A DNA stretch of 64,000 nt, from the NCBI GenBank assembly GCA_009392915.1, contig CP045477.1, positions 448,001-512,000 of the forward strand, written 5' to 3'. The notes under the pieces were generated by a model. It worked only from the letters and a program-made list of their open reading frames with translations, ran no database searches and was not told where the DNA came from. Source of the DNA: Candidatus Forterrea multitransposorum CG_2015-17_Forterrea_25_41 (GTDB taxonomy: Archaea > Iainarchaeota > Iainarchaeia > Iainarchaeales > CSSED10-239). Below are positions 1,841-41,281 of this stretch, piece after piece (positions within the stretch are counted from its first letter, which is position 1; every line of letters starts with the position of its first letter). The translations under genes and the position numbers were made by a program.

Positions 1841-3403
1841 TTATTTTCTAATATCTTTCTTTCTTAAAAGCCTATTGTAAGTTATAGCAAACCTATGAGT
1901 CTCATCTCTTATCCTCTGTAAAAGCTTTAAAGCTTTTGATTTTCTTGAAAGCTTAAGAGGAATTAAATTATCTTCTAAAAAGATTTCTTCTTCTTTTTTT
2001 GCAAGAGAGATTAAATTTACTTTTTTATAAAGGTTTAAAGAATCAATTGCTTTCTTAGCAGAAGATAATTGCCCTTTTCCACCATCAATAACAATTAGAT
2101 CAGGAAAATCTTTACCTTCTTTTAAAAGTCTTAAATATCTTCTTTTAACAATCTCTTCAATTGCTAGAAAATCATTATTTCCTTCAAAAGATTTAATCTT
2201 AAATCTTCTATATTCTTTTTTATTTTCTCTTCCCTCTTTAAACTGAACCATAGAACCTACAGTAAACTTTCCTGAAAGATGAGAGATATCAAAACATTCA
2301 ATAACTTTTGGAATTTCTTTTAAAGATAAAGCATTTTTAAGTTCTTCTAAAGCAAAAGTGTTTTCTAAAAATTTAATCTCTATGTTCTTATATGCAAAAT
2401 CTAGAAGTTCTTTTTTTTCTCCAGTCTTTGGAACTATTAATTTTATTTTTTTATTTTTCTTTTTAAAATAATCAATAGTTGATTGTTCTGGAAGATAAGG
2501 TAAAATTATTTCAAGAGATTCTTTCTTTTCTAAATATTTATCTAAAATAAAATCATCTAAAATAGTTTCTTCTTCAAAAACATCTAAAGTATATTCTCTT
2601 TTGTTAACTAAGATTCCTTTTGAAATATTAAATATTACAAAATAAGCTTTATTCTTATGTAAAATATAATTAACTAAATCTTGATTATATGTTTTTGTTT
2701 TTTCAACATTTTGTTTTAAAGATAAATAATCAATGGCATTTATCTGATCTCTTAAAACTAAAGCAGACTCAAAATTATTTTCTTTTGAAAAAAATTCCAT
2801 TCTCTCTTTTAAACTTTTTAAAACATCTTCAGTTTTTCCTTTTAAAAGAGAAGAGATTGTTTCAATAGTTTGAAGATATTCTTCTTTTGATATTTTATTT
2901 ATGCAAGGAGCAGAACATTGTCCTATATGGTATCTTATACAAGGTGTTTTAGGTAAAGTTTTACATGTTCTTAGTTTAAAATATTTATTTATATATTTTA
3001 AAAGATTATCTCGTTTTTCAGCAGAAGTAAATGGTCCAAAAGCTATTTGATAATCTTTTGGTTTTTCTCTTAAAATAAATAATCTTGGGAAAGCTTCTTT
3101 GGTTAAGGAAAGATAAGAGTATTCTTTTGAGTCTTTAAAGATGATGTTGTACCTTGGTTTATGCTTCTTAATTAAATTGTTTTCTAAAAGAAGTGCCTCA
3201 AGTTCGTTTTTTGTAACTATAAAGTCAATTGAGGAGATGTTTTCAACTAAAGCCCTAGTCTTTGGGTCTAAATCTTCTTTTGTAAAGTAACTTGTAACTC
3301 TTTTTTTTAAGTTTTTAGCTTTACCTATATAGATTATCATGTTATTTTTATCTTTATAAAGATAACAACCAGGTTCTATAGGTATTTTTGATAGGTCAAG
3401 CAT
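1841..3403 (-). CDS. uvrC: Excinuclease ABC subunit C (UvrC), short form without the C-terminal (HhH)2 domain
   Basis: N-terminal GIY-YIG motif (GCYLYKDKNNMIIYIGKAKNLKKRVTSYF) and a UVR-like helical segment. The C-terminal endonuclease domain ends ...DETHRFAITYNRLLRKK directly at the stop. Confidence 0.9.
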   Translation of the reverse strand: MLDLSKIPIEPGCYLYKDKNNMIIYIGKAKNLKKRVTSYFTKEDLDPKTRALVENISSIDFIVTKNELEALLLENNLIKKHKPRYNIIFKDSKEYSYLSLTKEAFPRLFILREKPKDYQIAFGPFTSAEKRDNLLKYINKYFKLRTCKTLPKTPCIRYHIGQCSAPCINKISKEEYLQTIETISSLLKGKTEDVLKSLKERMEFFSKENNFESALVLRDQINAIDYLSLKQNVEKTKTYNQDLVNYILHKNKAYFVIFNISKGILVNKREYTLDVFEEETILDDFILDKYLEKKESLEIILPYLPEQSTIDYFKKKNKKIKLIVPKTGEKKELLDFAYKNIEIKFLENTFALEELKNALSLKEIPKVIECFDISHLSGKFTVGSMVQFKEGRENKKEYRRFKIKSFEGNNDFLAIEEIVKRRYLRLLKEGKDFPDLIVIDGGKGQLSSAKKAIDSLNLYKKVNLISLAKKEEEIFLEDNLIPLKLSRKSKALKLLQRIRDETHRFAITYNRLLRKKDIRK

Positions 3404-3437
3404 AAATATATAGTTAAGAGAAACATTATAAAAATAG

Positions 3438-4541
3438 TTATCTTGGTCTTTTTGGTCTCTTTATCATTGGGTAACCTTTTGAAGGTTTAATTCTTTTAAG
3501 TTTAAAATCTTTAGAAAATAATCTTTTAAGAAAGCTTTCTTTTTTAACTTTTTGTTTTTCTTTTTTTATTTTTTCTACTTTGTTATTTTCACTAACTTTT
3601 TCTTTTTTAACTTCTTCTTTTGGTCTTAATAATCTTAAATCTTTTTCTTTAATATCTAAAACTTTTTTATTTTTTGTTTTTCCTAAAAGATAATTAATTT
3701 CAATATAAAGACCAGCTTTATTTCTATTTGAAACATTTCTATGAAGATATAGTTCTAATTTTTCATTAGGTGCATAATAAAGAGCATAATTTCCAAAAGG
3801 AATCATTTTTCCATTTTTAGTATGTTCAAAACCAAATTGAACCATAGGCATAAATAAAACTTTTCCTTCTTTTATTTGTGTATGCCCTTGAATGGATAAA
3901 AATTGAGAGGATCTATTATTAGTGTATTTAAGACCAGAAGAATAAACTCCTTCTTGAAATTTAAAATCTAAAATTCCTTCATAACTTGTAATTTTTCCTT
4001 GATCTATTTTTATTGATGCTCCAGCACCTATTTTTTTAGAAGTAACTGAAGATTGTAAAGAGGTTTTATCTAAAGGTTTAATATCTTTTAAAACAAAATT
4101 TGAAATTTCTTTTGAAAAACCAAGTCTTACATCTAAAGGTGTTTTTAAAAGTTTTGATAAATAAAGAGTTGAATAGATTCTTGCAAAAGTTAACTCTGGA
4201 ACTAATTTTCCATTTAAATAAAGATTATTTTTCCCAACTTCAACTGCAAAATTATATTGATTATCTTTTTTAAATTTTTTTCCAAATCTATATTCAAATG
4301 CTTGTTCTATAAATTTTTTAGAAGAAGAATCTGCTTCAAAACCATATGTTTTTGAAGAAAAAACATGTCCTTCTTTATAGATTGTAGGATATAGTTCAGT
4401 TGGGCTTATAAACTGTAAAGATTGAGCAGATATTTTTTGAGAACCAACTATAAGAGATCCAGAAACAGCTAAAGCTGTTAAAATTTTCTTTGGATCTTTT
4501 AAAAAAGATTTAATAAATGTAACTGGTTCTTTAAATTGCAT
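3438..4541 (-). CDS. Exported beta-rich hypothetical protein with a Lys-rich C-terminal tail
   Basis: N-terminal hydrophobic signal-like segment (ILTALAVSGSLIVGSQKISAQS), alternating-polarity beta-strand-like body, and a highly basic tail (KKEKQKVKKE...KRPKRPR). Confidence 0.55.
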   Translation of the reverse strand: MQFKEPVTFIKSFLKDPKKILTALAVSGSLIVGSQKISAQSLQFISPTELYPTIYKEGHVFSSKTYGFEADSSSKKFIEQAFEYRFGKKFKKDNQYNFAVEVGKNNLYLNGKLVPELTFARIYSTLYLSKLLKTPLDVRLGFSKEISNFVLKDIKPLDKTSLQSSVTSKKIGAGASIKIDQGKITSYEGILDFKFQEGVYSSGLKYTNNRSSQFLSIQGHTQIKEGKVLFMPMVQFGFEHTKNGKMIPFGNYALYYAPNEKLELYLHRNVSNRNKAGLYIEINYLLGKTKNKKVLDIKEKDLRLLRPKEEVKKEKVSENNKVEKIKKEKQKVKKESFLKRLFSKDFKLKRIKPSKGYPMIKRPKRPR

Positions 4542-4724
4542 GATTAATTACTTATTTATATATTATATATAATATATAGAAACAGACATTTAAATATTTA
4601 ATGCTTTATTTTATTAAAAAATAGATATAAATCTTCAAAAATATAATAAATTTAGAAAAAAATAAGAATCAAAACCTTTAAACACTTTCTTACATAATAT
4701 AGTTATTAAGAAAAATTTAGAAGA

Positions 4725-30190: not shown

Positions 30191-30919
30191 TTACTTCTTC
30201 TTTTTATCATCTTTTTTAGCAGCAGGAGCAGCTTTACCAGCTGGAGCTTTTGAATCTTTACCAGCAACAACTTTACCTTTTGCAGCTTTAAGTTCTTGAG
30301 CTTTTGCTTCTTCTGCTTTCTTTTCTTCTTCTGCCATAGCAGCAAGTTTTCTTCTCTTCTTTGTAGTTCCAACAGATTTTAAGTTGTCTTTATTTTCTTC
30401 AATTACAACTTTCATTCTACAAGGAAGTTTAGAATCAAGTCTTTCAAAGACTTTTTTTACAAATTCAACATTTGCTTCATCAACTAAAACACTAAATAAT
30501 TTTTGATTAGATTTAACTCTTGCAGCAACACCAACAACTTTTCCAAAAGGGCATTGACTCATACCTTGTTGAATTCTGTCGGCTTTAGCACCTTGAGCTT
30601 GTTTATTTTCTCTTAAGAAAAATTGAGGATATACTCTTAATTTCATATAGAAATTTTGAGCAGTTAATTTTTTATTTAAGTTTCTTACAACAGTTGTTCT
30701 TACAGATTCTAAAGCTGAATCTCTAATTTGTATTTTTTCAGAAGTTACATAATGAACTACATGAGAATATTGTTTTTCTCCAAAACCCATATGGTATTGT
30801 CTAACTTTAATACCTGGAGTTCCGCCTACATAGTTCTTTCTATGCACTCTTTTTGCAACTCTTGTATATGCTCTTTTATTTACTTTTGGATTATAACAAT
30901 GTCCTGGTCTAACACCCAT
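30191..30919 (-). CDS. rpl10e: Ribosomal protein uL16 (L10e) with a 56-aa Ala/Lys-rich C-terminal extension
   Basis: N-terminus MGVRPGHCYNPKVNKRAYTRV...GGTPGIKVRQYHMG is typical of archaeal L10e, with a GGTGA SD upstream. The tail is KKRRKLAAMAEEEKKAEEAKAQELKAAKGKVVAGKDSKAPAGKAAPAAKKDDKKKK. Confidence 0.9.
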   Translation of the reverse strand: MGVRPGHCYNPKVNKRAYTRVAKRVHRKNYVGGTPGIKVRQYHMGFGEKQYSHVVHYVTSEKIQIRDSALESVRTTVVRNLNKKLTAQNFYMKLRVYPQFFLRENKQAQGAKADRIQQGMSQCPFGKVVGVAARVKSNQKLFSVLVDEANVEFVKKVFERLDSKLPCRMKVVIEENKDNLKSVGTTKKRRKLAAMAEEEKKAEEAKAQELKAAKGKVVAGKDSKAPAGKAAPAAKKDDKKKK

Positions 30920-31290: not shown

Positions 31291-33081
31291 TCATCCATAA
31301 GTAGTTGCTTTAATACTTTTAACTACACCACTTACAAGAACCCAGCCACCCCATTGACCAGTATTTCTGGATGAATTGGTTACAGATAAAGTCCAACCAG
31401 GTTCACTGTCACCAACTTCCCAATATTTACATTTTTTAGAAGAACCAAAAGCTTCTACTTTAATATTATAATTACCAGCAGGAACTTTCCAAGATCCATC
31501 TTTATCAGTTGCAAGTTGTGAACCACCATATTTAAGATATAAACCATCATTTCCATAATCATTAGTTATTGAACAAACATATGAAGCACTTGTTGAAGAA
31601 TAATTAAAAGTGAGACCTGCTTGAGAAGTATCATTTTCAGAAGCTAAACTAACTACTCCTTCTAAAACTAAATTACCTTGTGTACTTAAACCCTGGTAAA
31701 AGAAACCTGCAGAAGACCAAAATTCATTTAATTTAACACCACCACCTGAGAACGCAGGCTGAGCTACAACTGTACCACCTGATTGCGACCAACCAGACAA
31801 ACTAGTAATACTAGTTTGATTTAATAAAACTACAGCAGGAGCTGATAGAACAAGATTAATACTTGAACTTGTTGCTGTTCTTGAAGCACCATCTGTTACA
31901 GTTACTCTAATATATTTTGTACCAGTAGTTGAAAATGAATAAGTTGGATTTGAAACTGAAGTTCCAAAAACAATCCAAGTACTTTGATTTGTACTATATT
32001 CCCAGGAATAATTAGATACTCCAGAAACTGCATTACTTACAGAAGAATTAAAACTTATTGTTTGACCAGTATCATAATTTGTACCAGTTGTTGGAGAAGT
32101 AACACTTACAGCTAAAGGATCACTAATTAAAATATTACTAACAGTATCAGAATAAACTTGATTAATAGGAGAAGGTCTTGAAGCATCTGTAACTAAAACT
32201 CTAAACTCATAAGTCCCACCTGTTGCAAAACCATTTGTTGTAGTATAACTATTAGAACCAAAGTTAGTCCAACCAGTACTGTTTCTATTATACTGCCATT
32301 GATAAGATTTAGTACCAATTGCATTTGAAACACCTACATCAAATATTATTCCTTCACTAAGATTATAAACATCACTTGCATCAGGAGTATAAATAGTTGC
32401 TGTTAATGGAAGAACAACTGTAAAATCTTCACTTGAAGTTGAAATATCTCCAGTTCCAGAATCTGTTACTTTATAATAAATAGTATAGCTTCCTGTTGAA
32501 GATAAAGTTTGAGATAAAGAAGCACAATTAGTACCAACTGCAGTATTAGTATCATTTGAGTTTAATATCCATTCACAAGAAACTGTTGAAACATTATTAT
32601 CATAATTTCCAGTAAATGAAATTGTTTCATTATTATTCCAAGTAGTTCTTGACATTGTAATACTTGAAGATAACAAATCTAAAATATTTATTCCAATTGT
32701 TTGAGAATCACTTGAAGAATCAAAATCATCTAAAGTATCTAATTTAATTGAATAATCATTAAATACTGAAAAAGAATAACTTGTATTACAATCAGTACTA
32801 AAAGATGTAAATGATGGTAAGTCAGCTCTCTTATGACTCCAATTACAAGTTACATTTCCAACATTATTACTATATGAAGAATTAAAATTAATTGTTTTTG
32901 TAACATTATAATTTGATTCTTCTGTTGGATTTAATATTGTTGATGAAAAATCATCAAAAATTTCAACAAATAAATCATCACTAAAAGTTCCTTCATCATC
33001 ATTTGCAATTACTAAAATTTCATAAATTCCAGGAGTTGTAAAAGTATAAGAAATATCACACAAGGTATCTGAAGGATTCAT
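31291..33081 (-). CDS. PKD-like-repeat plus lectin/jelly-roll-like surface protein; likely the distal part of a pilin-adhesin gene interrupted by an in-frame TAA
   Basis: Repeats share the pattern [ST]VSCEW.../...Y.F...G.Y.I.V.V.D..G and are Ser/Thr/Asn/Gly-rich. There is no signal peptide, and the annotated Met lies inside a repeat. The frame stays open for 46 more codons upstream, to the stop of ORF 33220-33744. Confidence 0.7.
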   Translation of the reverse strand: MNPSDTLCDISYTFTTPGIYEILVIANDDEGTFSDDLFVEIFDDFSSTILNPTEESNYNVTKTINFNSSYSNNVGNVTCNWSHKRADLPSFTSFSTDCNTSYSFSVFNDYSIKLDTLDDFDSSSDSQTIGINILDLLSSSITMSRTTWNNNETISFTGNYDNNVSTVSCEWILNSNDTNTAVGTNCASLSQTLSSTGSYTIYYKVTDSGTGDISTSSEDFTVVLPLTATIYTPDASDVYNLSEGIIFDVGVSNAIGTKSYQWQYNRNSTGWTNFGSNSYTTTNGFATGGTYEFRVLVTDASRPSPINQVYSDTVSNILISDPLAVSVTSPTTGTNYDTGQTISFNSSVSNAVSGVSNYSWEYSTNQSTWIVFGTSVSNPTYSFSTTGTKYIRVTVTDGASRTATSSSINLVLSAPAVVLLNQTSITSLSGWSQSGGTVVAQPAFSGGGVKLNEFWSSAGFFYQGLSTQGNLVLEGVVSLASENDTSQAGLTFNYSSTSASYVCSITNDYGNDGLYLKYGGSQLATDKDGSWKVPAGNYNIKVEAFGSSKKCKYWEVGDSEPGWTLSVTNSSRNTGQWGGWVLVSGVVKSIKATTYG

Positions 33082-33219
33082 TCTTACTTGTGATCCACCT
33101 GCAATTGTATGATACCATTCACAAGAAACACTTCCTCTTTGATAAAGTGTATCAGTTTCAAAAGAAACAGAAGTGTTTACTCTGAATGAATCAAAATTTG
33201 TAACATTTGAAAAGAAAAT

Positions 33220-33744
33220 TTAAGAAGATGGAAGTTCTACAGCACATTTTCTTAAATCAATTGTTTTTTTAGGACAAGTAGAGTTTGATAAAGTAAAAAC
33301 CTTTAAATCTAAAGGATCAATTATTTCTCCAGAATCAACATTAATATCAGAATTTACAATTGTAAAATCAGTTGTTGATTTTAATTTTTTAATTTCTCCA
33401 GATAAAATAGGATTATCAAAATTACCATACATTTTTAGAACATTTGAAGAATTTTGAGAAGTTCCTTGAATATTTAAAGAAAGATTATAAAAATCAATAG
33501 GGGTTGGGTTTCTTAATAAAACTTCAATATTTCCAGTAGTTGAATCAAGATTACAAGATTCTACAACTAAATTATACTTAATACAATCCATTCTAGAAAC
33601 TTCTTGTAATTGATCTTGTGAAACATCTAATTTTTCTCTAACAGATGTTTTTGACCAAGATAAAAATCCTGCAACTAAAACAGCTGTTACCAAGATTAAT
33701 AAAACTACAGAAATTATTGCCGAAATTGATTTTTTTCTATTCAT
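33220..33744 (-). CDS. Archaeal type IV pilin-like protein (class III signal peptide)
   Basis: N-terminus MNRKKSISAIISVVLLILVTAVLVAGFLSW fits the archaeal pilin N-terminal domain: basic residues, a small residue at -1, then a hydrophobic helix. It ends at a TAA in frame with the next ORF. Confidence 0.7.
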   Translation of the reverse strand: MNRKKSISAIISVVLLILVTAVLVAGFLSWSKTSVREKLDVSQDQLQEVSRMDCIKYNLVVESCNLDSTTGNIEVLLRNPTPIDFYNLSLNIQGTSQNSSNVLKMYGNFDNPILSGEIKKLKSTTDFTIVNSDINVDSGEIIDPLDLKVFTLSNSTCPKKTIDLRKCAVELPSS

Positions 33745-33830: not shown

Positions 33831-34172
33831 TTAAAAAGAAATAATATCATTTATTTTTATAAAAGAAATATCTGTTTCAATTGGAAGTTCAATTATATAT
33901 TTAGCTTTCTTTTTTGGAGAATAAAAAGTAAAAGGTCTTAATCTTTTTTTAATATCAATAACTTTTTTATTTGAATCTAGAAAAAGAACATTTATTGAAT
34001 AGAAAACAAAAAGCATATGAATTGAAGAGCCTACAATAGATTCATATTCTCTTTTAAAAATAAGACCAAAATCAAATTTCTTTCTTGGAAAAAACATAAG
34101 TCCAAGTCCTTGTTTTAAAGGAGAAATTATTTTCTTTTTTTTAATTATTATTTTATTATTAACTTTTATCAA
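33831..34172 (-). CDS. DUF192 (COG1430) family protein
   Basis: GLGLMF...IHMLFVFYSINVLFLDSNKKVIDIKK...AKYIIELP follows the DUF192 GLM/...M...LD..F.d/...vLE pattern. Confidence 0.65.
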   Translation of the reverse strand: MIKVNNKIIIKKKKIISPLKQGLGLMFFPRKKFDFGLIFKREYESIVGSSIHMLFVFYSINVLFLDSNKKVIDIKKRLRPFTFYSPKKKAKYIIELPIETDISFIKINDIISF

Positions 34173-34178
34173 AAATAA

Positions 34179-35330
34179 TCACACTTTTTTTTTTAAACTT
34201 ACCCTATATAAAATAACAAAATCAATATCAGATTTTCTAATCTCAAAATCAAAAAATACAGCATCTGGTACAAAAATAGCATACTCTGCACAAGAAAGAC
34301 CACATTCACTTTGATCAAAAGGTAAAAAATATAGATTATTACTATATGTTTTATCTAGAATATATTTAGAACTAATAGATTTTAAAGCAATGACTTCAGA
34401 AATATTTACTTGTTCTAGCTGATTACGATTCATATAGGTAATAGTGTCAATTAAAACACTCTCAGCATCTGGTTTTGGAACAGCAATTTGAAAGATTAAA
34501 ATTGTAAATATAAAAAATATGAAAATATATTTGATAAAATTAAAACTACTTTCTTCTTTTATTGCAAACATTATAAAAGAAATAAAGATAGAAAGAACAA
34601 TTGCCATATAAAGAAGGAAATTATCAAAAAATATTCTTGTTATTAAATCTTGATCTGCATACCATAAAAAATTATTACCTAGTATAATATTTATGAATAA
34701 AATTACAACTAAAAAGATTACAAATAAAACAATGGATAAATAATATAAATTTAAAAAATATTTTTTCTTTTGTGTTTCTTCTTTAAAAATAGAAATATCT
34801 TTTGAAATATTTAAAAGAACTCTATCAAGAGGTATAGAACTTTCTTTAAAAGTCTTTAACAATATTAAAGTGTGAGTGATTATTGGACTTTTAATAGTCT
34901 CATTAATACCTGATAAAGCATTTTCAAAATCATCTCCCCAAGAAACTCTATTTGCTATTCTTTTTATTTCTGTATCAATTGAACCATAAACATTTGATGT
35001 TGTGATATTGTTTAATGATATTGATAAATTATTTGTAGATTTATACTCTCTCGATAAATCTTGTAAAAAGAATGTAAAAGAAGTTTCAATTGCTTTCTTT
35101 TTAAAGTGTTTTAAAACATATTCTAAAACAAAACCTAAAAAACTTACGAAAAAACCAAAAAAGAAAACTGCATAGTATAATTCAGTATGAAGAAAATATT
35201 TATTTGATAAATGAACAATTAAAAGACCAGATAAAATACTTGCAAGAATTAATATTTGGTATTCATAATTATAAATTAATAGTTTTAATTTAATATTCAT
35301 TTTATCTAAAAATTTATTTTTTTCTATCAT
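34179..35330 (-). CDS. Type IV filament platform protein, TadC/FlaJ-half-like with an extra C-terminal domain (locus B)
   Basis: N-terminal TMs, a T2SS-F-like helical domain (..IKRIANRVSWGDDFENALSGINETIKSP..), 3 TMs, then a ~90-aa extracytoplasmic tail. Confidence 0.6.
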   Translation of the reverse strand: MIEKNKFLDKMNIKLKLLIYNYEYQILILASILSGLLIVHLSNKYFLHTELYYAVFFFGFFVSFLGFVLEYVLKHFKKKAIETSFTFFLQDLSREYKSTNNLSISLNNITTSNVYGSIDTEIKRIANRVSWGDDFENALSGINETIKSPIITHTLILLKTFKESSIPLDRVLLNISKDISIFKEETQKKKYFLNLYYLSIVLFVIFLVVILFINIILGNNFLWYADQDLITRIFFDNFLLYMAIVLSIFISFIMFAIKEESSFNFIKYIFIFFIFTILIFQIAVPKPDAESVLIDTITYMNRNQLEQVNISEVIALKSISSKYILDKTYSNNLYFLPFDQSECGLSCAEYAIFVPDAVFFDFEIRKSDIDFVILYRVSLKKKV

Positions 35331-35346
35331 TTAAAAATCAATCTCT

Positions 35347-36189
35347 TCATTTATATAAAATCCCAATTAATACAAATTCAATTACTGCAAATATTATTGA
35401 AAAAATCAACAATGATTCTTTTAATAAAAAATAATCTGTAAAAGTTATAAAAAATATTATTAAAATAACAATAAAAAAGAAAAATAAAAATATTGACATT
35501 AAAAATAAAATATTAATTCTACTTTTCTTTTGTTCACTTAACTCTCTTTTAGATTGTTCTAAATTAGTTAAGAAATCAAGAATAACTTGATTTAAGTCTT
35601 CTTTTTGATCAATAACTTCAATTAATTTTCTAAAGAAGTTTTTTTCAACTTCAGAATATGTTTCAGAAATTATTGATTTAAAAGTATCTTTAAGATTATG
35701 ATTTCTTTTATTTAAAGCAATTATTTTCTTTGCTTCTCTGCTTAATATATCATTATTTTCTAAGTTTTCAAAAACATTCAATACATCTTTAATAGTTAGA
35801 TTTTCATCTCTTAAAACAGATAAATGTTTTATAGATCTTTGAAATTCACTACCAATTTCTTTTTTTATATTATTTAAAATAAAAAAAGGATATTTAAATA
35901 AAAGTAAAAAAATCATAAAAGCAAAAGTAAAAGAAATAAAAATAGTTATAAAAAAACTAAAAAGATTAAACAATATTCCAAGTCTAATCATTAAATAAAT
36001 AAAAGCAAACTCTATAACTATTAAAAAAAATATAGAAATAAAAGAAATATTTGAAATATAACTAATAGAATCTTCATTGATACCAGTATATTCTAAAACT
36101 CTATCAAAATTTTTAAAAGTACCTTTAAATTGCATAACAATATCTTTTAAGAAAAATAAAGATATACTTGTTAAGAATTTACTAAACAT
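35347..36189 (-). CDS. Type IV filament platform protein, TadB/FlaJ-half-like (locus B)
   Basis: TMs flank a helical cytoplasmic domain (..IKHLSVLRDENLTIKDVLNVFENL..). The gap to the upstream ATPase-like gene is 7 nt. Confidence 0.6.
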   Translation of the reverse strand: MFSKFLTSISLFFLKDIVMQFKGTFKNFDRVLEYTGINEDSISYISNISFISIFFLIVIEFAFIYLMIRLGILFNLFSFFITIFISFTFAFMIFLLLFKYPFFILNNIKKEIGSEFQRSIKHLSVLRDENLTIKDVLNVFENLENNDILSREAKKIIALNKRNHNLKDTFKSIISETYSEVEKNFFRKLIEVIDQKEDLNQVILDFLTNLEQSKRELSEQKKSRINILFLMSIFLFFFFIVILIIFFITFTDYFLLKESLLIFSIIFAVIEFVLIGILYK

Positions 36190-36196
36190 ATTTTTT

Positions 36197-39100
36197 TCAC
36201 TTTATATCGAGTCTTTTAAACAACTCGTCCTTTTCATAATTATATTGAGAGATAATACTATTAAAATCTTTGTAATTGTATACTTTTGAATCCTTCATCC
36301 ATCTCATAAGTTTCTTTTTCTTTAAAAAATCAACAACATTTATTGAAGAAGATAAAAGATTAATATTGTATTTATTTTCGGATATTTCTAAATCTACAAC
36401 TACACTTTCATTTTTATTAATTATTTCTTTAATATTTACAATTTGATAAGTTTCTTTAAAACCTTGTTTAATTCTTTTAATTTCTATTAGAATAGATTTT
36501 TGATTAACCATTTTTAATTGTTCAATAAATTTATCAGCAACATTTGGTTTTATTGAAAAGATATTTAAGTTATACCAAGAAACATCAAAAATATCTTCTC
36601 CAAACTCATCAATTGCAATAATATCTGGTTTCTGAGAAATTGTTTGTTCAATAATTAAACGTTTACTTAAATCTGCATTATTTGTAAAAATTCTATTAAT
36701 CCATTCTTTTTGAGGAAGTTTAAATCTATCGTATGCCTGAACAGTTATAATTTTCTGATCAGGATAAAATAAAAGTATAGAATTATAAATTACAAAAGAA
36801 TCATCAACATCATGTAAAATAACTTTATAGTTTTCTGAAATTGCAGACCAGATATATGAAAATACATCTACAGAACCAATAGATGTATTAACTAAAGCAA
36901 CAGGTGTTAATGGTTCATCAAGATATTTTTTAATTACAAAAGAAGAACCTTTACTACTAGTATCTCCTAAAGAATAAAGACCTTCAACTTTATAACCATT
37001 AGGTAAATATCCATCAATCACAGGATGTTCTGGAGTTATATAGATACCCATATTTTTAGTTAAAATAGTTACAAAGTTATTTAACTCAATAATATCTTTA
37101 AAACTAATATTTGTTTTTAAAACACCATACTCTACATGGTAAACTATAAGATTTGATTTTTCACCAGAACAACTAACTTCAATTATTTTTTTATCAAGTA
37201 AAAGATTAGTTAAAATACCTAACCCAAAAAATTCTCTTTGAATAAATTTAAGATAAAGTTTTTGTTGTAATTTACCTAAACTATAAGATAATTTTTCAAC
37301 AGAAATATCAAATATTTTTTGAATATATTTATCAAGACTATGTTTATCTCCATTAAAAGAATAATAGTTTTTATCGATTGTATTAAAAAATACTTTTTTT
37401 AATTGAATATATTCTTTTTCTTGTTCACTATTAAGTTCTGGTTGTACTAAATTATAGAAAAGACCTTTAGTATTATCATAATGTATTGTAACATATGTAA
37501 AATCATCTATAGAATATTTATCAAAAATATTTTTTATATTTTCTTCAAATGAAGCAATAGGATCTTGATACACTAAAGAAGAAAATAGAGAATTGTCAGA
37601 AGATAATTTTTCTTGATATATTTCTTTATTTATTTTAACAGGATTTTTTCCAGCATCTTTTGGAAGGATATAATCCATACCTTTTTCTCTTAAGTCTTTA
37701 AATTTTTCTGCAATTAAATCATTTTTAACTTTCGGAGTTAATTTTACTTCTTTGATAATTTTAATTTCTTGTTCTTTTGGTAATGATTCTTTTTTAATTG
37801 TTTTAGATATTTTTTCATCATCATTATCTTCATCAGAATAATTCTCTTTTGAAGTAACTTTTTCTTCTCTTATAGAAGGAGAAATATATTTTTTATTTTT
37901 GTTTGAAATTTTAGATTTATCTTTTTTATTTTTAGGAGAAGAAATTTCTCTCATACCTTTATATATTCTTTCATCATCTTCTTTAGATAAATCAACATCA
38001 GAAAATACTTTTTTAACATCTTCTTCATCTTTATCTATTTTCTCATTTAAAACATTAACATCAAATTTTTCTTTTTCTTTTTCTTCTAAAGTTTTTGATT
38101 TTTTTAATTTAGAAATATTATTTTCAATTTCAGAATTTAATTTTACTTGATTATTATCAATTACAAAATTTGGTGTTTTTTCAGAAGATTCATTTGTTTT
38201 AATTTCAGAAGATAAAGAAGAATCTTCATTTAAAACTTTTAAATCATTTTTTGAATCTTTATCATATACAGAAAACTTATCTTCAACAGTGTTAGATAAA
38301 TCTTTAACATCATCTTCAATTGCAAAAATATCTGGAACTTCAATTTCTTCAAATAAACCATTAGCCTCACCTAAAGAAGAATTATTTAAATGAGAACTAG
38401 AATTTTTAGAATCTATTTCTAAATTACCTGTGTTTTTAGGAAAATCATTTGAATTTGCTAAAGTTTCTTTATTTTGAGAATCTTTATTTTTATTTACAGA
38501 TAAATGATCTATTTTTGAATATAAATTTTTAACATCATACTTTGGAAAATCAATTTTACTTTTTTTAGGTTTATCATCTAAAAAAGAAAATGATTCTAAA
38601 TAAACTTCTTGATCAAGTTTACTTGCTTTTTTATTTAATTGATCTAATAAATCATCTACATTTTCATTTTTTGATTTTACTTCTGAAAAAATATCATTTG
38701 ATTCTTTACTTTCAGAATATTCTTTTGGTTTAGATACATTTTCTAAAATATCTTTCAAAAGAGACATGGTTTTTTTATTATTATTTGATTCATCAAAATT
38801 TATTTCTTTTTTAATTGAATTATCAATATGATCTATTTTAGGCTCACTTATTAAAAATGAATTTGAAGGTTTTATTTTTTTTTCAGAAGATGAATCCGAA
38901 AGTAGTAGTTCATGAGATGAATCAGGGAGTAATAATTCATTATTAATTTTTGATGAAATTAATTTATTAGATGTTGATTTTTTATCAACTTTATCTAAAG
39001 GAACTTCTTTTTTAAAAATATTAGAATTATCAACCTTATCTAAAGGAACTTCTTTTTTAGAAATATTAGAATTATCAACTTTATCTAAAGGAACTTCTTT

Positions 39101-39547
39101 TTTAGAAATATTAGAATTATCAACTTTATCTAAAGGAACTTCTTTTTTAGAAATATTAGAATTATCAACTTTATCTAAAGGAACTTCTTTTTTAGAAATA
39201 TCTAAATTATCAACTTTATCTAAAAGAATCTTTTTTTTTCTAAAAGGATTAAAATCTTTATATTTTTCTTCAATATCAGAAGTGTCAACTTTTAAGTTTA
39301 CTTTCTTAACATCATTATAATTTTTATTTAAAGAAAAATCATCTTTTTTAGTTTCTGGTAAAACTACATCAAATTTTTGTAATTTTTTAGAATTACTATT
39401 ATTTTTTAAAGAACTATCAATTTTATCTTCTTTTAAAGAACTATCAAATTTATTATTTTTTACAGAATCTGAAGCTTTAGATATAGATTTAGATAGAGGA
39501 ATTCTTTTAATAACCTTAAAACCAGAAAAATTATCCTCTCCACCCAT
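36197..39547 (-). CDS. FlaI/ArlI-like secretion-ATPase homologue without a Walker A P-loop, fused to a ~700-aa low-complexity repeat-bearing N-terminus
   Basis: The C-terminal ~400 aa align collinearly with the locus A ATPase and the FlaI pattern (GLGILTNLLLDKKIIEVSCSG...VYHVEYGVLKTNISF...SSFVIKKYLDEPLTPV...). GxxGSGKT is replaced by ILHDVDDSFVI (nt 36788-36814). A Walker-B-like PDIIAIDEFGED is retained. Confidence 0.8.
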   Translation of the reverse strand: MGGEDNFSGFKVIKRIPLSKSISKASDSVKNNKFDSSLKEDKIDSSLKNNSNSKKLQKFDVVLPETKKDDFSLNKNYNDVKKVNLKVDTSDIEEKYKDFNPFRKKKILLDKVDNLDISKKEVPLDKVDNSNISKKEVPLDKVDNSNISKKEVPLDKVDNSNISKKEVPLDKVDNSNIFKKEVPLDKVDKKSTSNKLISSKINNELLLPDSSHELLLSDSSSEKKIKPSNSFLISEPKIDHIDNSIKKEINFDESNNNKKTMSLLKDILENVSKPKEYSESKESNDIFSEVKSKNENVDDLLDQLNKKASKLDQEVYLESFSFLDDKPKKSKIDFPKYDVKNLYSKIDHLSVNKNKDSQNKETLANSNDFPKNTGNLEIDSKNSSSHLNNSSLGEANGLFEEIEVPDIFAIEDDVKDLSNTVEDKFSVYDKDSKNDLKVLNEDSSLSSEIKTNESSEKTPNFVIDNNQVKLNSEIENNISKLKKSKTLEEKEKEKFDVNVLNEKIDKDEEDVKKVFSDVDLSKEDDERIYKGMREISSPKNKKDKSKISNKNKKYISPSIREEKVTSKENYSDEDNDDEKISKTIKKESLPKEQEIKIIKEVKLTPKVKNDLIAEKFKDLREKGMDYILPKDAGKNPVKINKEIYQEKLSSDNSLFSSLVYQDPIASFEENIKNIFDKYSIDDFTYVTIHYDNTKGLFYNLVQPELNSEQEKEYIQLKKVFFNTIDKNYYSFNGDKHSLDKYIQKIFDISVEKLSYSLGKLQQKLYLKFIQREFFGLGILTNLLLDKKIIEVSCSGEKSNLIVYHVEYGVLKTNISFKDIIELNNFVTILTKNMGIYITPEHPVIDGYLPNGYKVEGLYSLGDTSSKGSSFVIKKYLDEPLTPVALVNTSIGSVDVFSYIWSAISENYKVILHDVDDSFVIYNSILLFYPDQKIITVQAYDRFKLPQKEWINRIFTNNADLSKRLIIEQTISQKPDIIAIDEFGEDIFDVSWYNLNIFSIKPNVADKFIEQLKMVNQKSILIEIKRIKQGFKETYQIVNIKEIINKNESVVVDLEISENKYNINLLSSSINVVDFLKKKKLMRWMKDSKVYNYKDFNSIISQYNYEKDELFKRLDIK
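38986..39228 (-). repeat. Near-perfect 45-bp tandem repeat (~5.4 copies) inside the ATPase-like gene
   Basis: Unit caactttatctaaaggaacttcttttttagaaatattagaattat starts at 38986, 39031, 39076, 39121 and 39166, with a partial copy at 39211. It encodes (DNSNISKKEVPLDKV)n in frame. Confidence 0.92.
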
Positions 39548-39630: not shown

Positions 39631-40362
39631 TCAAATAACAAAAGAAATAATTTTTGGAATAATTTCAAAAACATATAAAAGAATTAGAAAGATATAACTT
39701 ACTAGGATTAATATAATAAATGGAATTAAAGGAGAAAACCACACCTTAGAAATATTATGATTTTTAGCAATAACTTTAATTTTTTTAATTTCATTTTCTG
39801 GTTCAATATTTGGCATAAAAACAATTTTTGAAATTAATTTATTATTTTCTACATACAATTTTTCTAAAGGAGTATAAAAATTATTTACTTTTTTTAAAGA
39901 TAAAGGAACCCCTAAAAACATTAGATATAATGATTTAAAAAAATTATATTTAGGAAAATTTCTTGAAAATAAATTATATAAAAATAAGAAAACAGGTATA
40001 AGTAAAGTTAAAACTAAAGCAAAAAAGAAAATAAACATTGGAAAATATATATCAAAAATATTTGTAAATGATATTGCAAAAATAGTATAAAGATCCCCTT
40101 CTCCTATATATGTAAAATAACTAATCTTTCCTAAAACATAAAAAATTAATAAAAATATAAAACTTACAGCAAGTTGTATTAAATAACCTTTCCATAAAAT
40201 AAAATCTGTTTTAAAAACAAAAATACCTAAATAAAGAATACTAAAGATGGCTAAGAAAAATAAAGACATTATATTTATTTCTCTATACTTAATATCTTGA
40301 TAAGTTACATACAATAAAATAATTATAGAAAAAATAATTATTGGTAAATAAATATAATCCAT
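39631..40362 (-). CDS. Archaeal prepilin/preflagellin peptidase (A24 family, FlaK/PibD/EppA-like)
   Basis: Polytopic membrane protein with two catalytic-Asp contexts at canonical spacing: YQDIKYREI (Asp23) and YIGEGDLY (GxGD, Asp~89). Confidence 0.8.
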   Translation of the reverse strand: MDYIYLPIIIFSIIILLYVTYQDIKYREINIMSLFFLAIFSILYLGIFVFKTDFILWKGYLIQLAVSFIFLLIFYVLGKISYFTYIGEGDLYTIFAISFTNIFDIYFPMFIFFFALVLTLLIPVFLFLYNLFSRNFPKYNFFKSLYLMFLGVPLSLKKVNNFYTPLEKLYVENNKLISKIVFMPNIEPENEIKKIKVIAKNHNISKVWFSPLIPFIILILVSYIFLILLYVFEIIPKIISFVI

Positions 40363-40369
40363 AAGTTAT

Positions 40370-41281
40370 CTATATTGATCTTTTTGTAAGATACATTAAA
40401 TCTTTATAAGCTTTAACTTTTGTTTTTCTTGCAGTTGATCTTTCAAAAAGATTATCAGTATAATTTCCAGGAGGTCCTACTGATTTAATTTTTTTATTTT
40501 TAATTTTATTTAAAAGAATCTTATTCTTTAAATTATCATCATCTTTATCAAAAAAAGAAGTATTTAGATCAATTGTTAAAATACCACTACCAATCTCAGA
40601 AACATTATAACTTCCAGAACCAGCTGTAATATAGTTTGACATTTTACCAAGCTTAATTGCTGCTTCAAATTTATAAACAACATCATAACTTTTTTGATCA
40701 ATTTTATGAGTTAAATATTCACTAAAACTTGAAAGTCCTAAAGTCTTAAAAAACCTATGAAGCTCTAAATAATCTAAAATATGTCTTAATTTTCTTAAGA
40801 AAAAAGAATCATGCATATAATAAGATAAATACCCAATTGTTCCAGTATATGCTTCAACACCAATTTTTTTTTCTTTAATAATTTTTTCTAATTTATCAAG
40901 TCCTAAAATATAAGTTGCAGAATTTGATATAAGTCCAAAAGGATGTGCAATTGTTATTAAATATCTTTTTTTATAACAAAAATCAATTAATCTTTTAAGA
41001 GAAACTTTATCTTCATAAAGTATAGAATAATTATAAATACTAGCATCTTCAGAAAAAACTAAAACTTCTCCAGAATCAGTTAATATTTTAATACCTGGAA
41101 TTAATAATTTATCTTTTGGTTTAAATTTTAAAAGTTCAAAATATGCTTTTCTAGGATCTAAATAATTATATTCAGTTATAGCTGTACCTAAAAGATTATT
41201 TTCAGAAACTACTTTCCAATATTTTTTTGCAGACTCTTTATTTTTAAAAAGATGAGTATGCATGTCAATATTATATAACAT
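40370..41281 (-). CDS. PHP-domain metal-dependent phosphoesterase
   Basis: N-terminal IDMHTHLF motif and later His-containing motifs (IAHPFG). Confidence 0.6.
   Translation of the reverse strand: MLYNIDMHTHLFKNKESAKKYWKVVSENNLLGTAITEYNYLDPRKAYFELLKFKPKDKLLIPGIKILTDSGEVLVFSEDASIYNYSILYEDKVSLKRLIDFCYKKRYLITIAHPFGLISNSATYILGLDKLEKIIKEKKIGVEAYTGTIGYLSYYMHDSFFLRKLRHILDYLELHRFFKTLGLSSFSEYLTHKIDQKSYDVVYKFEAAIKLGKMSNYITAGSGSYNVSEIGSGILTIDLNTSFFDKDDDNLKNKILLNKIKNKKIKSVGPPGNYTDNLFERSTARKTKVKAYKDLMYLTKRSI

Follow-up and report, generated by a model that had tools for sequence, protein, structure and literature searches.

Why does a gene for an archaeal pilus subunit end in a stop codon behind which 642 further codons of an extracellular-type adhesin remain open in the same frame? 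The locus that raises this question lies on the minus strand of a 64,000-nucleotide (nt) stretch of Candidatus Forterrea multitransposorum (contig CP045477.1, positions 448,001 to 512,000; hereafter, the window), where the codons from position 33744 down to 31291 form one pilin-adhesin frame with a TAA inside it. The probable answer, in our view, is that the adhesin of an archaeal modular pilin has recently been turned off here (a young adhesin-off allele), at a locus that evolves fast, recombines, and has been inactivated repeatedly.

A single frame with a young stop

An initial annotation, made from the letters of the window, had described one in-frame TAA between a pilin open reading frame (ORF) and the body of an adhesin, with 46 stop-free codons running on in the frame of both flanking ORFs. 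The sequence is as described, and translation confirmed the shared frame. From the ATG at 33744 to the TAA at 33222-33220, the minus strand encodes a 174-amino-acid (aa) product with the C terminus ...AVELPSS, and the 46 codons that follow (IFFSNVTNF...GGSQVR) lead without a stop to the methionine of an annotated 596-aa ORF, for a combined stretch of 817 codons with one internal stop. At the window's G+C content of 24%, a random frame would meet a stop about every 11 codons; the computed chance of 46 open codons is ~0.014, and because that of 642 open codons is ~2e-26, the open frame exceeds chance. No other gene in the 64-kb window is split likewise.

The methionine at 33081 corresponds to M222 of the fused orthologues, where it is invariant (QVRMNP). 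The annotated ORF begins MNPSDTLCDISY... and has no hydrophobic signal sequence, whereas its predicted folds are of extracellular types, as the initial annotation had noted from its composition. The claim that this methionine sits inside a repeat also holds, as the Pfam PKD match to the 642-aa read-on covers residues 12-86 and spans both the inter-ORF codons and the methionine.

Protein and contig searches recovered relatives from about eleven lineages, all of them Candidatus Iainarchaeum-type members of the DPANN archaea (Iainarchaeota). Neither a pilin-only search nor a profile search with the family alignment added further lineages, and the pilin-adhesin family is small. Six orthologues are contiguous proteins of 811-934 aa, and the junction is read straight through in L017 (P0001), L011, L013 (P0005), L012 (P0004), L020 (P0003), and L016 (P0008); in L007, which is truncated by the contig end, it is likewise open. 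This comparison, proposed as a check in the initial annotation, bears out its view of the locus as one pilin-adhesin gene of ~817 codons with one nonsense codon, as all six fused orthologues carry a sense codon at the site.

At the junction itself, L007, L011, L013, L017, and L021 have TCT TCT CAA ATT TTC where the window has TCT TCT TAA ATT TTC, and the sense codon is ACA in L012 and AAA in L020. The nearest relative is L021, from a different JGI sample; the 5' two-thirds of its gene, and the ribosomal protein gene downstream, are 99-100% identical to those of the window. Ahead of a lesion of its own, L021 differs from the window at 6 of 790 nt, one of which is the C/T at 33222, and the TAA is therefore younger than ~0.8% divergence. 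By this comparison, the stop is best read as a single recent C>T transition that turned CAA (Gln175) into TAA, which supports the recent pseudogenization listed among the options of the initial annotation; set against intact orthologues, codon 175 carries the disabling mutation expected of a pseudogene. As to population heterogeneity, another of those options, the two alleles do occur in different samples, L021 having CAA, but they were not found within one sample.

An open frame behind so young a stop says little about translation. By our calculation, a random substitution in the remnant has a 5.3% chance of introducing a stop, such that a neutral remnant would still be open in half of cases at 0.66% divergence and in 5% at 2.8%. 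Because the stop is at most 0.8% divergence old, an intact downstream frame is expected without selection and is no evidence of translation. No secondary lesions were found downstream of the window TAA, and none are expected at that divergence. A search for substitutions postdating the stop gave a similar picture, in that the contigs of each lineage with a junction TAA are mutually identical across the gene, and what distinguished the compared stretches was limited to a 19-nt indel in the promoter region of L002 and a single unlocated base in L006. The indel (TTTTGTTGTTATCTATATC; L001:2172-2190) lies ~30-50 nt upstream of the pilin start codon and is the only difference between the L001 and L002 contigs, which come from different datasets; it may affect the promoter.

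Lesions in other lineages and a mosaic adhesin

Beyond anything in the initial annotation, the aligned relatives indicate that the same junction has been struck independently in two other lineages. In the lineage of L001, L002, and L003 (known from an NCBI metagenome-assembled genome, a JGI metagenome, and a Logan assembly of an SRA run), whose protein is 55-60% identical to that of the window, a single in-frame TAA stands two alignment columns downstream of the window stop (NLPDFET-stop-ILSP). Its relative L015 has TTA where these three have TAA, pointing to a TTA>TAA change, and the two TAA codons, two columns apart, have separate origins. In L009, the same junction has gained a single nucleotide (CCT GCC T GAA ATA TTT), and this insertion creates an immediate TGA, behind which a fully open adhesin of 766 codons continues in the +1 frame. 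Rescue of this frameshift by slippage at an upstream A7 run was considered and rejected, as that frame meets TAG at once.

Two further lesions lie deeper in the adhesin, namely, a 7-nt deletion in PKD2 of L021 and a 2-nt deletion within an A6 run in the lectin domain of L015. In all, the adhesin is disabled in 5 of about eleven lineages, each time by a different lesion, and all 11 retain an intact pilin module. Of the five lesions, three fall within four codons of the module boundary (P of ~8.5e-4 for at least three if lesions were uniform over the 642 codons). As judged from these alignments, the gene family has probably suffered at least five independent lesions, all of which abolish or impair the adhesin without touching the pilin module. 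No way of losing the adhesin is cleaner than truncation at the boundary, because the pilin left behind ends correctly, and the recurrence and boundary clustering argue for lesions filtered by selection. In its behavior, the locus resembles a gene for recognizing hosts or surfaces that evolves fast and whose adhesin is lost again and again, the loss being either tolerated or favored.

The distal adhesin of the window is itself a mosaic. From the end of PKD3 through the lectin, its nearest matches conflict with the phylogeny of the 5' part, PKD4-5 being closest to L012 (87%) and the tip to L020 (85%), a pattern in the sequence that suggests cassette-like recombination. Whole tips have also been exchanged; in L013 (P0005), L016 (P0008), and L009 (4163-6463), a C terminus of ~300 aa with Cadherin-like (PF12733) and Gly_rich_2 (PF21722) domains replaces the concanavalin-A-like tip, and L013 is otherwise 95-99% identical in its 5' part to lectin-tipped relatives.

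Copy number varies as well, as the pilin is tandemly duplicated in two lineages. L009 has an extra stand-alone pilin gene (positions 2977-3504; 175 aa, ending KRCFVE) upstream of its frameshifted pilin-adhesin, and the first pilin-adhesin gene of L015 is followed directly by the start of a second pilin gene (4403-4626) that has the same promoter region.

Pilin, stalk, tip, and the pilus gene cluster

The first 174 codons encode what we predict, from sequence and gene context, is an archaeal type IV pilin of the normal stand-alone size for its family. Its N terminus is of class III type, with a basic leader (MNRKKS) followed by a hydrophobic helix, ISAIISVVLLILVTAVLVAGF (ISAIISVVLLILVT...), and its head is beta-rich with two cysteines (in the C54/C64 region and in TCPKK...C167). 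An AlphaFold2 model of the fused orthologue P0001 (mean predicted local distance difference test [pLDDT] score, 78.6) has helices at residues 2-31 and 43-56, the strands of the head at 60-162, and a low-confidence linker at 169-171, and the first PKD strand starts at residue 175, the position of the stop. In an exhaustive HMMER search, homologues of pilin residues 3-170 fell into two groups, one of many stand-alone archaeal pilins (165-180 aa) and one of proteins of 315-1063 aa with other C-terminal modules, and the stand-alone homologues stop 3-6 residues past their last cysteine, where the window has its TAA.

No Pfam family matched the window pilin above threshold, its match to NCBIfam UpsA (E=0.052) falls far below the cutoff, and the relatives P0046, P0034, P0039, and P0057 match Pilin_N (PF07790) at E values of 2e-4 to 0.09, below the gathering score. 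In its surroundings, genes for a prepilin peptidase, a FlaI/PilB-type ATPase, and TadC/FlaJ-like platform proteins all lie on the same strand (Table 1), and the pilin gene is the sole one of its kind within the window.

The adhesin part is a stalk with a tip. In Pfam searches, the 642-aa read-on matched PKD_4 (E=1.9e-9) and, just below threshold, PKD (E=1.3e-4). When it is cut into five units of ~92 aa, all align with one another, the first one starting at the stop (LPSS-stop-IFF, compared with DFSSTIL and LLSSSIT in others). AlphaFold2 likewise predicts five Ig-like beta-sandwiches (pLDDT, 80-95) followed by a C-terminal sandwich. Because generic tandem-Ig proteins were all that Foldseek returned for the full-length model, the C-terminal domain was modeled separately; alone, it matched CBM66, ERGIC-53, VIP36, and legume lectins in the PDB (E of ~1e-6; template modeling scores, 0.57-0.73). 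The added modules have recognizable binding-type folds, five PKD domains and a concanavalin-A-like lectin, both predicted. On these models, the ancestral product qualifies as a predicted modular type IV pilin as Raynaud et al. use the term (PMC8179133). The architecture of pilin, short linker, and functional module is present in P0001, P0003, P0004, P0005, P0006, and P0008; the window allele as encoded ends at the linker and is in this respect a former member of the class.

Table 1. Features of the pilin-adhesin locus and of the adjoining pilus gene cluster, in window positions
Feature	Positions	Strand	Basis or remark
Pilin module ORF	33220..33744	minus	174 aa + TAA; coding codons 33744-33223
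In-frame TAA, codon 175	33220..33222	minus	Single C>T at window position 33222, from CAA (Gln)
46 "intergenic" codons, the N-terminal half of PKD repeat 1	33082..33219	minus	Conserved at the protein level in all orthologues
Annotated 596-aa ORF (P0002)	31291..33081	minus	Met 33081 is a conserved internal residue of PKD1
Five PKD/Ig-like repeats (aa 171-264, 265-356, 357-446, 447-542, 543-635)	31840..33234	minus	Pfam, self-alignment, AlphaFold2, Foldseek
Concanavalin-A-like (L-type lectin/CBM66-like) beta-sandwich, aa 636-817 (predicted)	31294..31839	minus	AlphaFold2 model of the domain alone, pLDDT 92
Mosaic distal adhesin, end of PKD3 through lectin	31350..32400	minus	74-94% identical to L021; flanks 98-100%
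DUF192 (COG1430) gene	33831..34172	minus	Between platform genes and pilin in every related locus examined
Two T2SSF/TadC-like membrane platform genes (34179-35330 and 35347-36189)	34179..36189	minus	Pfam T2SSF, E=2e-8 and 2e-9
FlaI/PilB-type secretion ATPase, 1116 aa, with long repetitive N-terminal extension	36197..39547	minus	NCBIfam FlaI, E=1.9e-30, residues 668-955
Archaeal prepilin peptidase (A24 family)	39631..40362	minus	Pfam Arc_PepC_II, E=5.8e-10; Peptidase_A24, E=2.2e-4

Several neighbors have features of their own. The N-terminal ~650 residues of the ATPase are of low complexity, and only residues ~668-955 match FlaI; at 38982-39239, its gene contains a 45-nt tandem repeat (15 aa, KKEVPLDKVDNSNIS) of 5.7 copies at 96% identity. 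The DUF192 gene may encode an uncharacterized accessory of the pilus system. At the head of the cluster, a 303-aa ORF (40370-41281, minus strand) has a weak CehA/McbA metallohydrolase-like match (E=1e-3) and no Pfam family. On the other side of the locus, a gene at 30191-30919 (minus strand) encodes a 242-aa homologue of ribosomal protein L10e/uL16 whose Lys/Ala/Glu-rich C-terminal tail of ~70 residues (..KKRRKLAAMAEEEKKAEEAKAQELKAAKGK..KKDDKKKK) is conserved in L009; archaeal L10e is normally shorter.

Explanations and comparison with known systems

The young adhesin-off allele can be set out as follows. The N-terminal pilin module would be assembled by the products of the adjacent peptidase, ATPase, and platform genes, and it would ancestrally have carried a grafted adhesin of five PKD/Ig-like domains tipped by the concanavalin-A-like lectin. 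A very recent C>T, falling exactly at the module boundary, has left the gene encoding a plain pilin of the family's usual size. The cell presumably makes adhesin-less pili, and the downstream part is probably an untranslated remnant too young for decay. Truncation in the linker would yield an assembly-competent pilin, and breaks inside domains would probably yield subunits with misfolded appendages. Loss of the adhesin may be favored, for example as an escape from a tip-recognizing agent or in life off the host, or it may merely be tolerated.

Some observations weigh against this account. Polarized changes in PKD1-3 on the window branch number 6 synonymous to 4 nonsynonymous against a neutral expectation of ~1 to 3.6, which by sequence is the mark of purifying selection over most of that branch, with a timing relative to the stop that cannot be dated. 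A second lesion is absent in all three junction-split lineages, as continued translation would also predict, and three lesions clustered at one junction also resemble a recoding site. L021 and L015 are single short metagenomic contigs, and their indels could be assembly errors. Within the window, this is the only pilin, and other pilins or adhesins in the genome would set the cost of losing the adhesin. Pairwise ratios of nonsynonymous to synonymous substitution rates in the adhesin are 0.22-0.47 in most comparisons, with or without a split partner, and the L001 branch (15 synonymous, 40 nonsynonymous) does not differ significantly from its sister (25 and 44). All these branch counts involve few changes polarized by outgroups of only 70-80% nucleotide identity, too distant for dating a relaxation.

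Three other explanations are easily weighed. An artefact of sequencing or assembly, with a sense codon in the true genome, had been left open by the initial annotation and has in its favor only the general error rate of metagenome assemblies. We regard it as excluded, with next to no chance of being right: the same TAA with 100% identical flanks is present in independent JGI and NCBI assemblies (JGI 3300007985, JGI 3300008094, Ga0210028, and NCBI GCA_009993835.1), a sequence index lists the 596-aa ORF in 92 blocks, and searches of 5.8 billion proteins returned no 817-aa revertant of the window strain. Gene callers annotate two genes, and L001 has the same two-ORF layout, but a separate protein starting at Met 33081 is very improbable when that residue lies inside PKD1 and is internal in every fused orthologue, the 46 codons before it are conserved coding sequence, and its product would lack a signal sequence for folds that are all extracellular. 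Decoding of TAA as an amino acid, by a variant code or a suppressor tRNA, has practically no probability in a window where TAA ends 26 of 46 long ORFs (TGA and TAG end 10 each), no other gene is split by an in-frame TAA, and the four tRNAs are ordinary; genome-wide stop suppression was rejected on the same grounds, TAA being the main stop and no other window gene being split.

A dual-product gene deserves a fuller hearing. If the junction stop leaked (or, in L009, if a +1 shift occurred at GCC-UGA-A), an abundant short pilin and a rare pilin-adhesin could come from one gene, at about one tip per filament. Three independent interruptions within four codons of the boundary, each with an open frame behind it, fit that idea, as do a linker that in the model tolerates any inserted residue and a locus at which filament and tip would both have to come from one pilin gene; for bacteria, in-frame stops that are under purifying selection are reported to be widespread (PMC7918605). 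The low-level readthrough proposed in the initial annotation nevertheless found no positive support. The stop is not conserved, the closest relatives having CAA or TTA, and sense codons occur in relatives at 99% (L021), 95% (the L017 clade), and 90-94% (L015 versus L001) identity. Nor is the context leaky: TAA-A is the commonest terminator context in the window (12 of 46), several genuine genes end in TAAATT, and the bases around the stop are the same in fused relatives, so that nothing has evolved around it. No conserved or stimulatory RNA structure follows the stop, the folding of 159 nt around and after it giving z scores of -1.84 (window) and +0.72 (L001). The out-of-frame deletions of L021 and L015 are beyond rescue by readthrough and imply that, for a short time at least, cells can do without the adhesin. 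The recoding established for Archaea comprises selenocysteine and pyrrolysine insertion and one -1 frameshift only (PMC8037382, PMC8211752). We consider a dual-product gene quite unlikely. A bolder version, in which the interruptions are a recurrently evolved stoichiometry device and basal UAA readthrough (or the +1 shift in L009) supplies ~1 pilin-adhesin per thousand short pilins, is a longer shot still; if true, it would be the first readthrough product in Archaea outside selenocysteine and pyrrolysine and the first pilus so built, and it would match the one-tip-per-filament need of a locus with a single pilin gene.

The gene could also be a contingency locus, at which repeated mutation, back-mutation, or recombination with intact cassettes would turn adhesin expression off and on at the population level as selection fluctuates, for example with host availability or with viruses that use the tip of the pilus. 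That five of about eleven lineages are off by different lesions, none with a second one, suggests short-lived off states; one of the lesions is within an A6 run, mosaicism and swapped tips mark the distal adhesin (concanavalin-A-like versus Cadherin-like plus Gly_rich_2), and near-identical strains differ in junction state. The window site, however, has no hypermutable simple-sequence tract (TCTTCT[C>T]AAATT is a point substitution, and only the L015 lesion sits in an A6 run) and would revert only at the base mutation rate, the 7-nt deletion is effectively irreversible, both alleles have been seen together in no sample, and plain repeated loss under relaxed selection predicts the same pattern. 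Such a switch is, in our estimation, rather unlikely.

The interest of the locus extends beyond one stop codon. DPANN archaea are believed to live attached to other cells, by attachment machinery about which almost nothing is known. The locus offers a concrete candidate for it, a type IV pilus subunit with a PKD stalk and a lectin tip. An adhesive part that is swapped, recombined, and knocked out between close strains while the filament subunit is kept is the signature of fluctuating selection at a cell-cell or virus-cell interface, and it marks alleles worth comparing in the field. There is also a lesson for annotation, as what the databases carry as a 596-aa "hypothetical protein" is the downstream remainder of a truncated gene, without a start of its own. 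Neither this locus nor any pilin-PKD fusion in Iainarchaeota was described in the literature that we searched; in general terms, pilins of archaea, and of DPANN lineages, have been noted to evolve fast (PMC6393860).

Counterparts of the same size are the stand-alone archaeal pilins of the family, P0013, P0024, P0026, P0034, P0046, and others, which share with the window product a length of 165-180 aa, the N terminus, the two-cysteine C-terminal region, and the end point. In those genes, a natural stop is followed by noncoding DNA, whereas in the window it is followed by 642 intact adhesin codons. A structural subunit gene with a long in-frame extension needed in small amounts is familiar from the coat readthrough extension proteins of viruses, such as Q-beta A1 and the coat protein-readthrough domain fusion (CP-RTD) of luteoviruses. 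Stops of that type are conserved; most are UGA or UAG codons with leaky surroundings, and downstream RNA signals often accompany them. The window stop is, in contrast, a lineage-specific UAA-A with no such structure, and it is absent from the closest relatives. Also comparable are ordinary young pseudogenes or truncated alleles of surface adhesins, and pilus adhesins subject to phase variation, such as Neisseria pilC, with which the window shares loss of the adhesin, retention of the filament, and lesions that recur across lineages. Unlike in pilC-type systems, there is no homopolymer switch at the window site, where a point nonsense mutation is the lesion, and three of five lesions in the family lie at the module boundary. 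The nonsense mutation itself is ordinary, and the repeated strikes at one module boundary across lineages are the noteworthy part.

In architecture, the gene is of a known kind. Modular type IV pilins, including PilB (with a vWA module) and PilC (with a concanavalin-A-like lectin module) of Streptococcus sanguinis and CofB of enterotoxigenic Escherichia coli (PMC8179133, PMC9934059), have been catalogued for bacteria through a bacterial motif (PMC8179133). Like them, the pilin-adhesin has an N-terminal pilin module, a short linker, and a bulky adhesion module, and its gene lies beside the assembly machinery; its tip belongs to the same fold class as the S. sanguinis PilC module. Unlike them, it is archaeal, has a class III N terminus instead of the IPR012902 motif, inserts a stalk of five PKD domains between pilin and lectin, and is the only pilin gene seen at its locus, and in this strain a stop codon has uncoupled the modules. 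The locus is a DPANN example of the modular type IV pilin, with a PKD stalk and a lectin tip.

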